Shown here: positions 24,187-61,585 of the stretch, piece after piece
Layout of the letters: each line of letters starts with the position of its first letter
How positions within the stretch are numbered: the stretch's first letter is position 1
Assembly: GCF_003334315.1 (NCBI RefSeq)
Contig: NZ_QOWR01000023.1
Direction: 5' to 3' (one strand)
DNA: 64,000 bases
DNA from: Escherichia coli
GTDB taxonomy: Bacteria > Pseudomonadota > Gammaproteobacteria > Enterobacterales > Enterobacteriaceae
The notes under the pieces: generated by a model
What the model was told of the DNA's origin: nothing
Seen by the model: the letters and a program-made list of their open reading frames with translations, nothing else
Databases searched by the model: none
Translations under genes and position numbers: made by a program

Positions 24187-24537
24187 AGTAAATAGCTGAC
24201 TTATGGATGTGCTGGGGATTCTATGTATTTAGCTGTGGCTTTACCATTACTTTTCCCGTTTTTGACTTAAATAGCAATTTACCCGCCAATTCTTGCTGAA
24301 CATCTATACTTTTTTTGTATTTTTATGCGATTCATTGATTTCTGCTGTACGTGCAGGAAGGAATCGCAGAGCAACAGTGAAAGAATATGGTTGCTAATGA
24401 TTTTATTTGATTGATTTCTTTATTGAAAATCAACAATGTGCTTAAAAATCATTCGGGTCGGATTGCCGCGAAAGAAGTGATACACTAGCGCGTCAATATC
24501 AGTGCGGTATCAGTATTCAGGTAGCTGTTGAGCCTGG

Positions 24538-24549
24538 GGCGGTAGCGTG
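24538..24549 (+). promoter_or_regulatory. ops / JUMPStart element (RfaH recruitment site) in the waaQ leader
   Basis: GGCGGTAGCGTG at 24538-24549, about 50-95 bp upstream of the candidate waaQ starts. Confidence 0.8.
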
Positions 24550-55339: not shown

Positions 55340-55557
55340 TCATCAATGTTTTTACCCGAGAGGGCTGGGGTGAGGCTTTTCCCTCACCCAAACCCTCTCC
55401 GTGAGGAGAGGGGCAGCGCCGGATGCGGCGTAAGCGCCTTATCCGGCCTACAAGAACGTGCAAATTCAACAAATTGTGATGCATCCTGTAGGCCTGATAA
55501 GCGTAGCGCATCAGGCAATTAACCCCACCTTCTCCATGTGGAGAGGGTGGGATTGGA
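55340..55557. repeat. REP elements plus GC-rich hairpins in the mtlA-mtlD intergenic region
   Basis: gccggatgcggcgtaagcgccttatccggcctaca and ctgtaggcctgataagcgtagcgcatcaggc (REP), flanked by ccctctccgtgaggagaggg and cccaccttctccatgtggagagggtggg hairpins. Confidence 0.8.
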
Positions 55558-57471: not shown

Positions 57472-57614
57472 AAAAACACCCCTTCTTATGTTTGCTGTCG
57501 CGCAGGCTGGAAGCCCGAGGTTTTTTGTTAATGTGGCGGCAGAGGTAGCCGGACCTTGTAGATACTGCGAAATCTGGCACTGAATCGGTTAACTGTCCAG
57601 TCGACGGCCTTTTG

Positions 57615-57630
57615 TGTGATATCAATCACA
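57615..57630. promoter_or_regulatory. CRP-type palindrome in the mtlA promoter region
   Basis: TGTGA-TATCAA-TCACA. Confidence 0.6.
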
Positions 57631-57731
57631 TAAATATAGGGGGTAGAGAGGTAATTGACGTGACGTTCATCACAAAACGCTTGTGTAAAAAAGCAACAAG
57701 GCGGCGATTTTCGCTAAAAATGGCATTTAAA

Positions 57732-57747
57732 TGTGAGTAGTGTCACA
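57732..57747. promoter_or_regulatory. CRP-type palindrome in the mtlA promoter region
   Basis: TGTGA-GTAGTG-TCACA. Confidence 0.6.
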
Positions 57748-57775
57748 TTTTTGTTTTGATGGTTTGTTGAATCTT

Positions 57776-57791
57776 TGTGATCTGAATCACA
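57776..57791. promoter_or_regulatory. CRP-type palindrome in the mtlA promoter region
   Basis: TGTGA-TCTGAA-TCACA. Confidence 0.6.
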
Positions 57792-58007
57792 AGATATTTT
57801 CTTACGGCGTTCACCTGATGTGATCTACAGCATGTTATGCCTTCGTCATACAATCGTTATGTAACTAAGCAACTCATCACCTCTAAAAATTATTCTTTGG
57901 TGTTATGGCGAGAATCGCGAACCCGGATTATTGTCAAAATATCAGCCTGACTCCCTTCTGGCTGCCAGCCCAAAAACAACACTGATAAACGTGAATCCGA
58001 GGCAGAT

Positions 58008-58370
58008 ATGTTTCTAAACTATTTCGCGTTGGGAGTGCTGATCTTCGTCTTTCTGGTGATTTTTTATGGAATCATCGCGATACATGACATCCCTTATCTG
58101 ATTGCCAAAAAGCGCAACCATCCCCATGCCGACGCTATTCATACGGCGGGCTGGGTGAGCCTGTTTACTCTGCATGTTATCTGGCCGTTTCTGTGGATCT
58201 GGGCGACGCTCTATCAACCGGAGCGTGGCTGGGGTATGCAGTCACATGTTGCGTCGCAGGAGAAAGCGACTGACCCGGAAATCGCCTCACTTTCTGACCG
58301 AATTTCCCGGCTGGAGCATCAACTCGCCGCCGAGAAAAAGACTGACTATTCCACGTTCCCGGAGATCTAA
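58008..58370 (+). CDS. yibI: small inner-membrane protein (DUF3302-like)
   Basis: 120-aa ORF with a hydrophobic N-terminus, immediately upstream of yibH. Confidence 0.85.
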
Positions 58371-58372
58371 TT

Positions 58373-59509
58373 ATGGATCTATTGATTGTTTTAACTTACG
58401 TGGCGCTGGCGTGGGCGGTCTTTAAAATCTTCCGCATTCCGGTAAATCAGTGGACGCTGGCGACGGCGGCGCTGGGAGGCGTGTTTCTGGTGAGTGGTTT
58501 GATTTTGTTGATGAACTACAACCACCCTTACACTTTTACCGCGCAAAAGGCAGTGATAGCGATCCCTATCACGCCACAGGTGACGGGAATTGTTACTGAA
58601 GTCACTGACAAGAATAATCAGCTTATTCAAAAGGGCGAGGTGCTTTTTAAGCTCGACCCGGTTCGTTACCAGGCGCGAGTTGACAGACTTCAGGCTGACC
58701 TGATGACGGCGACGCATAATATAAAGACGCTGCGTGCGCAGCTCACTGAAGCGCAGGCCAACACCACCCAGGTTTCAGCGGAGCGCGACCGTCTGTTTAA
58801 AAATTATCAACGTTACTTGAAAGGCAGCCAGGCGGCGGTGAATCCGTTCTCGGAACGTGACATCGACGATGCGCGGCAAAATTTCCTCGCGCAGGATGCG
58901 CTGGTGAAAGGCTCGGTGGCGGAGCAGGCGCAGATCCAGAGCCAGCTCGACAGTATGGTTAACGGCGAGCAATCGCAGATTGTGAGCTTAAGAGCGCAAC
59001 TTACTGAAGCAAAATATAACCTTGAGCAGACTGTCATTCGCGCGCCGAGCAATGGCTACGTTACTCAGGTACTGATCCGCCCAGGTACATACGCAGCTGC
59101 CTTGCCGCTGCGTCCGGTGATGGTCTTCATCCCCGAGCAAAAACGGCAAATTGTCGCCCAATTTCGGCAAAACTCGCTGTTACGTCTGAAACCCGGCGAT
59201 GATGCGGAAGTGGTGTTTAACGCGCTACCTGGGCAGGTGTTTCACGGCAAACTGACTAGTATTTTACCTGTCGTGCCAGGCGGTTCTTATCAGGCGCAGG
59301 GGGTATTGCAATCATTAACGGTCGTGCCCGGCACGGACGGTGTGCTGGGAACCATTGAACTGGACCCTAACGATGATATCGATGCCTTACCCGACGGCAT
59401 CTACGCCCAGGTGGCGGTTTACTCCGACCATTTCAGCCATGTTTCGGTGATGCGGAAAGTGCTGCTAAGAATGACCAGCTGGATGCATTATCTTTATTTG
59501 GATCATTGA
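58373..59509 (+). CDS. yibH: HlyD-family membrane-fusion / periplasmic adaptor protein
   Basis: 378-aa ORF with N-terminal TM anchor, coiled-coil centre and C-terminal beta domain. Confidence 0.88.
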
Positions 59510-59968
59510 GGGGGAGGGGGGAGATTATGGAACTTTGCTCCTTGTAAGGACTAATTATTTTTGCATATTACTTCATTAGCTGCGATGATTTTTCTTTAAT
59601 ATTCATTATGTTAATAAGTTCTGGATGAGTGTGCTCTCATTGGATTTTTTATCCGTCTTGTTCTGCCGCAGGATGAGACTATACATCGTCGAGATCGCAA
59701 TGATGATATGAGTTGTTCCTCCTGCGACGGCTCTAATCAAAAAAGAGCAGGAGTGCTTTTCCATCTATTGCGATGATGGCTTTATTATCTGAAGGATGAC
59801 AGTCACATTTAAAAAATATTTAATCTATAGATCACAATGTAGGGTCATGGAATATATGTATACAACTATTTTCTTCTTCACTTTTAATTATCGTATTCAT
59901 TATAAAACTAAGTTAAAAAAACTCCTGGAGAGTGAGTTATTAATATATTTTTAAATAAAATTAAGTTA

Positions 59969-60406
59969 TCATTCATCGATGCACTTTATAGAATCATCAA
60001 TGGCCATAATAGTACTATTAACTCTCAATTTTATATTTTTATCATCACTACAAATATTAACTGAATTTATATCAATGATTTTTTTATTCTTATCTTTTAT
60101 TTTATTTACTGTTTCAATGCAATCAGCGGCAAGTTGGAGTGGATTTAGATTTTTCAGATATGGTCTTATGATCTTTCCCTTACTTAATAAATAGCATGTA
60201 TAGGATTCGGAAAGTCCAGCATCTATTTTGTACCTCATTATATTAGATAAGGATGTGAGAAATTCCTTGTTATCATTCGCAGCCATATATGCCAGTCCGA
60301 GTTCAGCCTCTGCGGCCTTACAGGCAAAATAGCTTAGTGAACACGCTTTTCGTCCCTCTTTAGTACTGGCTGATATTAGTGCCCATAATATTGCTTTGTC
60401 TGCCAA
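59969..60406 (-). CDS. hypothetical protein (145 aa), candidate Rhs-associated immunity protein
   Basis: AT-rich ORF with no family I recognise; lies in the Rhs orphan-module region. Confidence 0.4.
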   Translation of the reverse strand: MADKAILWALISASTKEGRKACSLSYFACKAAEAELGLAYMAANDNKEFLTSLSNIMRYKIDAGLSESYTCYLLSKGKIIRPYLKNLNPLQLAADCIETVNKIKDKNKKIIDINSVNICSDDKNIKLRVNSTIMAIDDSIKCIDE

Positions 60407-60494
60407 ATCTAACTCTCTCTGAAATTGTCTTGCAGTAACTGCACTCGCAGAAATAGAGAAAAAAATACAATTGTTAATAACCTTGCCATATTTT

Positions 60495-60788
60495 TTAGTC
60501 CGTAACTGTTAATGTGCTATCTGGCTCTGAAAATATTAACTCATTTAATTTTTGCATGTCATTAGATAAACCAGTTATACAACCCTCGGAACAGAATCGA
60601 GGTCCTAAAGACGGACCAAAAGCGTTTAAACAACTATGTATTGAAAATCCATTGCGATTATAAGTTCCTGTATTAACTGACGGTACTAATCGTATGCCGT
60701 CAGGTTTTCTATTGCTTGCTCCCGGGTCATTAACATTCCAACTCCATAGGCCTTGAGGTATTGGCCATCTATTTATAAATGTGTACAA
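60495..60788 (-). CDS. hypothetical protein (97 aa), possible toxin-tip fragment
   Basis: ORF with apparent TTG start, immediately downstream of a degenerate Rhs core-end remnant. Confidence 0.3.
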   Translation of the reverse strand: MYTFINRWPIPQGLWSWNVNDPGASNRKPDGIRLVPSVNTGTYNRNGFSIHSCLNAFGPSLGPRFCSEGCITGLSNDMQKLNELIFSEPDSTLTVTD

Positions 60789-60861
60789 CGGGGATTATTT
60801 TTACATTGCATATTATTACCAGAAGCGACTGGAATACTAAGCACATCATAAAAATTATCAT

Positions 60862-61100
60862 CACATGGTATATCTGAAACACACGAAAGCATACCTAAAG
60901 TTATGCTGTATAAACAGGTGGCTAATCCCAAGGGGATCGATTCCAGAAATCGGGTTCAACGGATACTGATAAAAATTCCACCTACCTTCCAGCCCAATCG
61001 GAGCCTGAGTGTTATACCGCCCCTGCTGCGGTTAATGTTACCGATAATAGTTATAGTACAGCCCTGATTCATCATCATACTACTGCTGCGGCAGTCTGAT
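60862..61100 (-). pseudogene. degenerate third copy of the Rhs core 3'-end segment
   Basis: Nucleotide similarity to the core-end segments at 62100-62260 and 63855-64000 (ggttcaacggatactgataaaaattcca...agcccaatcgg...ataccgcccctgc); hand translation gives ...[24 protein letters not shown]...DPLG with in-frame stops on both sides. Confidence 0.4.
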
Positions 61101-61112
61101 GAACTATTGCTT

Positions 61113-61574
61113 TTACGGATTCTCCTTATTCTTCCTTCTATCCATTCGCTTTAGCTTTTTGAGCTCTTGAAGTTTGCTCTTTGCATCAATATTACCGTTA
61201 TTTACAGCGAATTTCATCCAATAAATAGCTCTATTCAAATTATAATATTCTGATAATGTTGGATTTGTATCTGATAAAAAGACCCCATAATTAAACTGCG
61301 CTGTAACATTCCCCTGAGATGCTGATCTTTCCAAGAATCGCAATTGTTTATCAATATTATTTTTAGTAAAGCAGTAATATTGATATAGTCGAAATGATGC
61401 CTCTGAATCACCATGTTGTGATTTATACTTCAGTTTCATCAGCTTTTCTTCACTTAAATCATAGGTCATTGCTGTAGATCCCATCACACTTTCGTTTTCT
61501 TTTATTTTCACATCAGCACCATGCAATTGACCAATAAGAGAAAAATAAAAAAATAGTAACAAGCATGCTTTCAT
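61113..61574 (-). CDS. yibG: Sel1/TPR-like repeat protein with signal peptide; probable immunity protein for the adjacent orphan Rhs toxin tip
   Basis: 153-aa ORF MKACLLLFFYFSLIGQLHG...; immediately downstream of the orphan rhs fragment. Confidence 0.7.
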   Translation of the reverse strand: MKACLLLFFYFSLIGQLHGADVKIKENESVMGSTAMTYDLSEEKLMKLKYKSQHGDSEASFRLYQYYCFTKNNIDKQLRFLERSASQGNVTAQFNYGVFLSDTNPTLSEYYNLNRAIYWMKFAVNNGNIDAKSKLQELKKLKRMDRRKNKENP

Positions 61575-61585
61575 ACATCTACAAC

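Follow-up and report, generated by a model that had tools for sequence, protein, structure and literature searches.

The genes yibI and yibH of Escherichia coli raise the question of what a periplasmic adaptor does when no transporter gene accompanies it. We addressed this question in a 64,000-nucleotide stretch of E. coli DNA (contig NZ_QOWR01000023.1 of assembly GCF_003334315.1; hereafter the window), in which both genes lie on the plus strand, yibI at 58008-58370 and yibH at 58373-59509. According to the open reading frame (ORF) calls both start with ATG. yibI encodes a 120 amino acid (aa) inner-membrane protein of the DUF3302 family (PF11742), and yibH a 378 aa EmrA-like, membrane-anchored periplasmic adaptor, i.e. 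a membrane fusion protein. RefSeq annotated the identical DNA as 'DUF3302 domain-containing protein' and 'HlyD family secretion protein', respectively. An earlier sequence-only reading had proposed that the adaptor either works with a pump encoded elsewhere or has a role other than efflux. Both proposals remain as rivals here, but they leave out a third option, in which the DUF3302 protein itself is the inner-membrane component. This option was raised by two results described below, the obligate partnership of DUF3302 with the adaptor across phyla and the clustering of the pair with outer-membrane factor (OMF) genes, again without a pump, in distant clades. We estimate a probability of roughly 45% that YibI and YibH make up that half of an OMF-dependent envelope conduit of the EmrA class which lies in the inner membrane and periplasm, YibI serving the adaptor as its dedicated partner in the inner membrane.

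YibH and its paralogue YiaV have been remarked on in reviews as 'orphan' adaptors, and to our knowledge they are the last periplasmic adaptors of E. coli without an assigned partner. The gene pairs yibIH and yiaWV are both still counted among the uncharacterized 'y-ome'. Our literature search found no study addressing the function of YibI/YibH or YiaW/YiaV, and the interactome and TolC-partner papers examined did not mention YibI or YibH.

A conserved gene pair without a linked pump

The two genes are nearly contiguous, as the sequence-only reading had described, with the TAA stop of yibI (58368-58370) followed after a spacer of 2 bp by the ATG of yibH at 58373. A Shine-Dalgarno-like GAGG (57999-58002, plus strand) was read from the sequence 5 nt ahead of the yibI start codon, and a corresponding GGAG for yibH (58361-58364, plus strand) lies within the final yibI codons, which indicates translational coupling. 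Intergenic gaps of the yibI-yibH type measured -8 to +9 bp in nearly all loci. Both belong to the core genome and are subject to strong purifying selection. A 2.5-kb stretch containing the pair was found in 5407 of 5426 complete E. coli genomes, and the ratio of nonsynonymous to synonymous substitution rates (dN/dS) relative to Citrobacter or Yokenella orthologues was 0.02 for yibH and 0.03-0.07 for yibI, with a nonsynonymous rate (dN) in yibI of 0.03 for the core vs 0.29 for the tail. The G+C content was 0.50-0.55 over both genes and fell to 0.27-0.39 directly past the yibH stop.

These figures bear on the notion that yibI and yibH are functionless remnants of a former pump operon. The lack of an adjoining pump, the tolerated deletion of yibH and the existence of a paralogous copy would fit such a leftover, yet it is hardly credible in view of the near-complete presence in E. 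coli, the low dN/dS values, an adaptor length of exactly 378 aa in nearly all Enterobacterales, the conservation of the pair across phyla and its regulated expression.

The paralogous pair yiaW-yiaV, which the sequence-only reading had not mentioned, is found 16 kb from yibI-yibH and outside the window (L002:4005-5470; NZ_CP033096.1 128004-129469). It has the same architecture, with identical order and spacing of the genes, 75% identity between YiaW and YibI, 77% between YiaV and YibH, and the same adaptor length. No pump gene lies beside yiaW-yiaV either. The flanks of the two pairs differ, with yiaW-yiaV being followed by convergent yiaU (LysR/LpsR) and then yiaT (MipA/OmpV). In Citrobacter and relatives, which lack the Rhs island described below, the gene order is mtlRDA, yibIH, yibF-selAB-yiaY-aldB, yiaWV and yiaU-yiaT, and the two pairs are only ~9 kb apart in Citrobacter. 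YiaV has been catalogued as an uncharacterized adaptor (Transporter Classification, TC, 8.A.1.1.4; PMC10971958). In Citrobacter amalonaticus (L012:19575-19880) a divergent DUF3302 ORF with 41% identity to YibI follows aldB, which is the position of yiaW in relatives; this locus ends before the adaptor region.

For the comparison across genomes we used 72 Enterobacterales loci with 10-kb flanks, 80 further loci from a metagenome profile scan with distant members, and Pfam-annotated contexts from twelve look-ups. Among 86 analysed DUF3302 ORFs, which were dominated by Enterobacterales, 77 were followed by a YibH homologue (gap -29 to +111 bp, most -4 to +9 bp). At the other nine either the end of the locus was reached or, at L013, no adaptor ORF was called. 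Pairing was universal among the metagenomic loci, the sole exception with downstream DNA being L109 (8001-8460), which keeps just the first 20-30 adaptor codons and represents a decayed locus or an assembly chimera. ORF calls were faulty for ~10 high-G+C contigs, and L118 and L131 were read by hand. One 433-bp sequence filed under a Myxococcus assembly (L021, NZ_VIFM01000806.1) carries an enterobacterial-type yibI (~73% identical) and is probably assembly contamination.

In the window, no ABC, RND, MFS, emrB-like or FUSC gene was found in the operon or adjoining it, as already observed in part from the sequence alone. The 5' neighbour of yibI is the divergent mtlA (phosphotransferase system mannitol uptake), with mtlD and mtlR beyond, and on the 3' side yibH is followed by an Imm57 pseudogene and Rhs fragments. 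A cognate transporter gene beside the pair in related genomes, which would speak against the lack of a linked pump, was absent from the operon in all 72 Enterobacterales and ~70 metagenomic or metagenome-assembled genome (MAG) loci covered by our pump survey. None of these ~140 loci held an ABC, RND, DHA2-MFS or FUSC gene in the DUF3302-adaptor operon. The neighbours vary outside the Escherichia-Citrobacter-Enterobacter group, and none of them is a conserved transporter. Several nearby genes were considered as pumps and rejected: the RND operon of L120 is divergent and has its own adaptor, the MFS gene of L084 encodes an uptake-type ACS-family member two genes off, and a SulP gene (L124), an AspT-like gene (L143), a LysE-like gene (L059) and a 12-transmembrane-helix MFS gene (L062) were each seen once.

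In many distant loci, a NodT-family OMF gene was located 2-41 bp from the DUF3302-adaptor pair on the same strand. The OMF-linked pairs belong to several deep clades (Bacteroidota, Campylobacterota, vent and sediment bacteria) and represent a tight three-gene cluster without a pump. Two of the three OMF genes scored against TIGR01845 (L080 and L082) passed the cut-off of 210 with 232-239 bits, and that of L079 fell just below with 184 bits. The order was OMF-DUF3302-adaptor in L076-78, L079 (a Reichenbachiella MAG, Bacteroidota) and L081, and DUF3302-adaptor-OMF in L080, L082, L092, L097, L098, L134, L136, L164, L165 and L166 (Nitratifractor, Campylobacterota). Between the two arrangements, adaptor sequences shared only ~40% identity, which indicates that the OMF linkage is old or has arisen repeatedly. 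Operons with an adaptor and an OMF normally carry the inner-membrane component as well, and since the only other constant gene in these clusters encodes the DUF3302 protein, YibI is the candidate for this component. Adaptors of the HlyD family characteristically function with an OMF, and distant homologues of YibH have NodT-family genes in their operons; no OMF gene is linked to the pair in E. coli. L080 additionally encoded a complete FUSC-OMF-DUF1656-adaptor operon 2 kb from the DUF3302 cluster, showing that pump-containing and pump-less clusters coexist in one genome.

Architecture of YibH and YibI

The membrane-fusion fold that had been assigned to YibH was confirmed by Pfam domains (CusB_dom_1, HlyD_D23, Biotin_lipoyl_2), by an AlphaFold2 (AF2) model with a mean predicted local distance difference test (pLDDT) of 78, and by Foldseek. 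The domains and the model comprise the lipoyl domain, alpha-helical hairpin and beta-barrel that define the HlyD/membrane fusion family (TC 8.A.1). In the model these are preceded by two hydrophobic helices and followed by a C-terminal helix, and the membrane-proximal (fourth) domain is missing. The N-terminal helix pair (aa 2-19 and 26-50; 58376-58522, plus strand), seen in hydropathy, alignment and model, corresponds to the inner-membrane anchor of the adaptor family. The turn between these helices is rich in positive charges (K+R 2.6, D+E 0.01 in 104 homologues), which implies a periplasmic body, and an invariant MNYNHP follows the pair. The modelled hairpin (aa 97-151 and 161-218, helices of 55 and 58 residues; 58661-59026, plus strand) is conserved at its tip (R147...G151-S152...V156). 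A conserved disordered loop of the beta-barrel (aa 303-317; 59279-59323, plus strand; pLDDT <50 at 303-308 and 310-317) contains the invariant G304 and the near-invariant Q307, G310 and L312. At the C-terminus, hydropathy, alignment and model agreed on a conserved amphipathic helix (aa 356-374; 59438-59494, plus strand), where R361, L364, R366, M367, W370 and the terminal H378 are invariant. The family motifs, namely the transmembrane hairpin, MNYNHP and the C-terminal RKxLLRMxxW helix, are conserved from E. coli to Bacteroidota.

EmrA was the best match of YibH in both sequence and fold. The best Foldseek match was to the EmrA chains of EmrAB-TolC (8zal/8zar; E=2e-19, template modelling score ~0.6), and matches to EmrA, MacA, AcrA and MexA had E values between 1e-19 and 1e-11. 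The nearest NCBIfam families were EmrA/EmrK, MdtN and AaeA, all far under their cut-offs (TIGR00998 for EmrA/EmrK, 113.5 vs 390.8 bits; NF011715 for EmrA, 57.1 vs 563; MdtN, 111 vs 376; AaeA, 75 vs 400). EmrA and YibH are alike in the lipoyl domain, the long hairpin, the beta-barrel with its long flexible loop, the C-terminal helix and the lack of a membrane-proximal domain. Aligned by profile with E. coli EmrA, YibH is matched along the entire hairpin, interrupted only by one gap of 2 residues at the tip, and its hairpin equals the TolC-docking hairpin of EmrA in length to within 2 residues. The loop at aa 303-317 may, by analogy, be the counterpart of the long beta-barrel loop described for EmrA (PMC13139468). 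EmrA differs in having one N-terminal transmembrane helix, whereas YibH has two hydrophobic helices, and its C-terminal helix follows a long coil (PMC13139468), whereas that of YibH begins 5 residues past the barrel. Unlike EmrA, YibH-type adaptors are always preceded by a DUF3302 gene, and no gene for an EmrB-like pump accompanies them. MdtNOP (SdsRQP) provides a second comparison, with MdtN as the second-best family of YibH and an operon that holds a NodT-type OMF like the distant DUF3302 clusters. However, MdtNOP includes the pump MdtO, which has no counterpart in yibI-yibH, and the MdtN score of YibH was low as given above.

We also considered a holin- or spanin-like reading, i.e. a small two-helix protein together with a coiled-coil protein. 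It was ruled out by the complete adaptor fold of YibH, and it is further countered by the native G+C content of this core DNA and by relatives that cluster with efflux OMF genes. Among the PADLOC defence models YibI had no match and YibH matched only as coiled-coil noise (E ~0.005).

YibI is a small membrane protein, as the sequence-only reading had it, and matched PF11742 over model positions 1-76 of 77 (E=3.3e-41). It had no family match in NCBIfam, and no relative in PDB by sequence or fold, where sequence matches were to designed coiled coils or helical bundles and fold hits were insignificant. Clustering at 50% identity divides the small DUF3302 family into 816 clusters. The AF2 model of YibI (mean pLDDT 87) contains helices at aa 2-26, 28-35, 41-68 and 90-113. 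Transmembrane helix 1 (aa 2-26; 58011-58085, plus strand; hydropathy, model and alignments) ends in a conserved H26-D27-I-P and leads into a conserved polar loop (aa 26-46; 58083-58145, plus strand; alignment and charge count), in which P29, A33, R36, H38, P39, A43 and I44 are invariant or near-invariant. Transmembrane helix 2 (aa 41-68; 58128-58211, plus strand; alignments and model) carries the conserved W49, S51, L52, H56, W59, P60, W65 and A66. The C-terminal amphipathic or coiled-coil helix (aa 90-113; 58275-58346, plus strand; model and alignment) is variable in sequence and preceded by a variable linker, and the helix is retained throughout the family. The pattern HDIP...RNHPH is conserved from E. 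coli to Bacteroidota. Charge counts over 430 family members suggest that the polar loop is probably cytoplasmic, with a mean K+R of 2.9 in the loop vs 0.2 in the N-terminal tail before helix 1; the flank past helix 2 also holds 1.8 positive charges, and the topology is not settled by these counts.

The order of a small two-helix membrane protein directly upstream of an adaptor of the AaeA/EmrA class is shared with AaeXAB and YdhIJK. The small protein of these systems is a DUF1656 protein, however, and homology of DUF3302 to AaeX/DUF1656 was ruled out (hhalign probability 0.5%). They also include a FUSC pump, which yibI-yibH does not have, and AaeA-type adaptors lack both the second N-terminal helix and the C-terminal helix of YibH. 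The AaeA-like adaptor from L080 aligned with YibH at 29% identity and likewise had no C-terminal helix.

This comparison bears on the possibility that YibH serves an unlinked transporter, for instance one of the orphan FUSC/ArAE proteins YccS, YhfK and YeeA or an MFS pump of the DHA2 type; YibI, in that case, would be an accessory resembling AaeX or AcrZ. Orphan FUSC and MFS genes are known from E. coli, the curated families nearest to YibH comprise adaptors that serve MFS pumps (EmrA/EmrK) or FUSC-type pumps (MdtN, AaeA), and the gene order mirrors the DUF1656-AaeA arrangement found with a FUSC pump in L080. Unlinked genes are also familiar from tolC, which the TolC-dependent systems of E. 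coli use from a separate location. Nevertheless, adaptor and OMF share one operon, still without a pump, in no fewer than 13 loci representing two or more deep clades, DUF3302 is unrelated to DUF1656, and DUF3302 is conserved as much as the adaptor and never missing, which would be unusual for an accessory. We regard an unlinked pump as the main rival to the conduit, serious but unlikely.

A possible envelope conduit

If YibI and YibH form a conduit, the translationally coupled operon would produce an adaptor that is anchored in the inner membrane by its two N-terminal helices, with lipoyl domain, long alpha-hairpin and beta-barrel following. By analogy with EmrA, YibH would assemble into a hexameric tube and dock tip-to-tip on TolC or on another OMF of E. 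coli such as MdtQ, MdtP or CusC. The OMF would be encoded at an unlinked site, and a NodT-type OMF such as MdtQ would be an alternative to TolC. YibI would act as the obligate and stoichiometric inner-membrane partner of YibH and would sit beneath the adaptor ring, at the place that EmrB takes in EmrAB-TolC, so that YibI and the membrane helices of the adaptor might jointly constitute the inner-membrane component for a presumed substrate. The conserved His and Asp residues of YibI could provide energy coupling as a proton- or cation-linked gate, which is speculation. The template for this arrangement is the EmrAB-TolC complex, in which EmrA forms a hexameric tube in tip-to-tip contact with TolC and one EmrB monomer lies under the beta-barrel ring (PMC13139468), and MdtQ has been described as a NodT-type orphan OMF (PMC11762307). 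The family-specific conserved features at the membrane, which are the transmembrane hairpin, MNYNHP and RKxLLRMxxW in the adaptor and HDIP...RNHPH and H56 in DUF3302, would fit a shared membrane-embedded unit.

Small inner-membrane proteins tied to a tripartite system, as proposed here for YibI, are known from accessories of the AcrZ type. AcrZ binds the AcrB pump, is encoded apart from acrAB and is dispensable for assembly of the complex. DUF3302, unlike AcrZ, is always in an operon with the adaptor and without a pump.

A number of observations weigh against such a conduit. No tripartite system is known to us in which a two-helix protein takes the part of the inner-membrane unit. The RLS-type tip motif (R-x3-L-x6-S) was absent from the YibH hairpin by pattern search. 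All OMF-linked adaptors are short-hairpin forms of 315-321 aa with ~62 hairpin residues fewer, and a linked OMF gene was never found beside the long-hairpin forms, including that of E. coli. Of 22 non-enteric loci flanked by 1.3 kb or more on each side, only ~7 had a linked OMF gene and most lacked it; as relatives of one OMF-linked member were favoured by the sampling, this fraction is indicative only. In L079, a duplicated permease resembling MacB is encoded 1 kb upstream of the pair and on its strand, and in four DUF3302-adaptor-OMF clusters only, a gene of the K+/H+ antiporter type (CPA, PF00999, ~400 aa) lies 0-36 bp after the OMF gene (L080:10716-11933, L097:4163-5371, L136:6605-7810, L164:9757-10980). 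Finally, yibH served as a neutral integration site (PMC5852967), and the reported phenotypes of both pairs are mild and indirect.

These phenotypes are related to the envelope and not to drugs, which favours a different role, in which the pair would form a periplasmic scaffold anchored in the inner membrane that contributes to integrity, permeability or surface structures, with no passage of substrate through an OMF. Deletion of yibI reduced fitness in urine (competitive index 0.33) and lowered adhesion (PMC5404293), deletion of yibH in K. pneumoniae led to less plaquing by evolved phages (PMC11796411), and deletion of yiaW raised transformation efficiency, according to a citation of this result within PMC12844161. 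Envelope genes are also frequent neighbours, such as yiaT (MipA/OmpV), yiaU/LpsR, DUF3313 lipoprotein genes, a porin-like gene in L079 and Wza/Wzc genes in L118. Against this, the fold of YibH is that of a complete channel-forming adaptor with a hairpin of EmrA length, distant clades have efflux OMF genes in the same operon, and the envelope neighbours are not kept across clades. A role of this kind thus seems improbable to us.

The conduit proposed for YibI and YibH might be extended to the whole family. DUF3302-adaptor(-OMF) clusters would then represent an unrecognized tripartite class, in which the two-helix DUF3302 protein and the membrane hairpin of the adaptor make up the inner-membrane unit without any ABC, RND, MFS or FUSC protein, and E. 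coli would have two such systems, YibIH and YiaWV, using TolC or an orphan OMF. We consider this wider proposal doubtful, and less likely than the conduit itself. Two features appear to be new, the pump-less DUF3302-adaptor-OMF architecture that extends across phyla and the YibH hairpin of EmrA length. If DUF3302 does replace the pump, envelope conduits could be built on a minimal inner-membrane unit, and the recognition of such systems in genomes would change, as present annotation looks for an adaptor together with a transporter. The physiology of E. coli would be widened by two TolC-class systems, and there are hints that these act in stationary phase, in urine and at the envelope. Even with a distant pump, the strict coupling of DUF3302 and adaptor would offer a testable handle on two long-standing orphan genes.

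Regulation and genomic surroundings

The intergenic region between the divergent mtlA and yibI contains four palindromes of the CRP consensus (TGTGA-N6-TCACA, at most one mismatch; 57615-57791, strand not assigned). The 64-kb window contained no match beyond these four, which all lie inside 177 bp. It is possible that mtlA and yibI share this regulatory region and that the putative CRP sites also act on yibI. In O157:H7, yibH and mtlA were reported to rise jointly at the transition from exponential to stationary phase, and yibH and yiaW to be induced on entry into stationary phase (PMC2241611). Clones of the UTI89 region upstream of yibI drove urine-induced expression (PMC5404293). Scans for promoter and terminator consensus sequences around yibI-yibH gave site numbers not exceeding those of shuffled sequence, and yibH was not followed by a terminator. 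An Rfam scan of the whole window gave nothing at yibI-yibH, the sole match being a JUMPstart element (RF01707, 55 bits) at 24511-24549 on the plus strand.

Past the yibH stop, the window (59510-64000) contains an Rhs accessory island inserted between yibH and yibF, with the Imm57 pseudogene, Rhs C-terminal fragments, yibG, yibA and rhsA. In Citrobacter, Kluyvera, Enterobacter and some E. coli-like gut contigs (L145, L150, L155, L160), yibF is located ~70 bp 3' of yibH. An IS3-family element breaks the match to window positions 57500-60000 in two strains, MB22 (H1) and EH10-18-47 (H2).

Two further gene associations were seen in other genomes. In one marine/sediment clade, a reductive-dehalogenase-like set consisting of an RdhA-type enzyme, a 92-aa VcrB-like anchor and a NosR/NapH-like flavin mononucleotide (FMN)/Fe-S protein is encoded directly upstream of DUF3302-adaptor on the same strand (L087:4602-7679, L090:1127-4212, L093:4636-7725, L163:665-3737; also L091, and in L124 the NosR-like gene only). 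A DUF3313 lipoprotein gene (PF11769, E=1e-60) adjoins the pair in three Enterobacterales (L062:9193-9861; L073, a 222-aa ORF directly upstream of the pair; L047:11626-12294) and lies 6.5 kb off in one metagenomic locus (L163:1-536).

On the mtl side of the pair, GC-rich palindromic elements were found at 55392-55412 and 55528-55548 between mtlA and mtlD, by which the mechanically called mtlD ORF is inflated to 488 aa.

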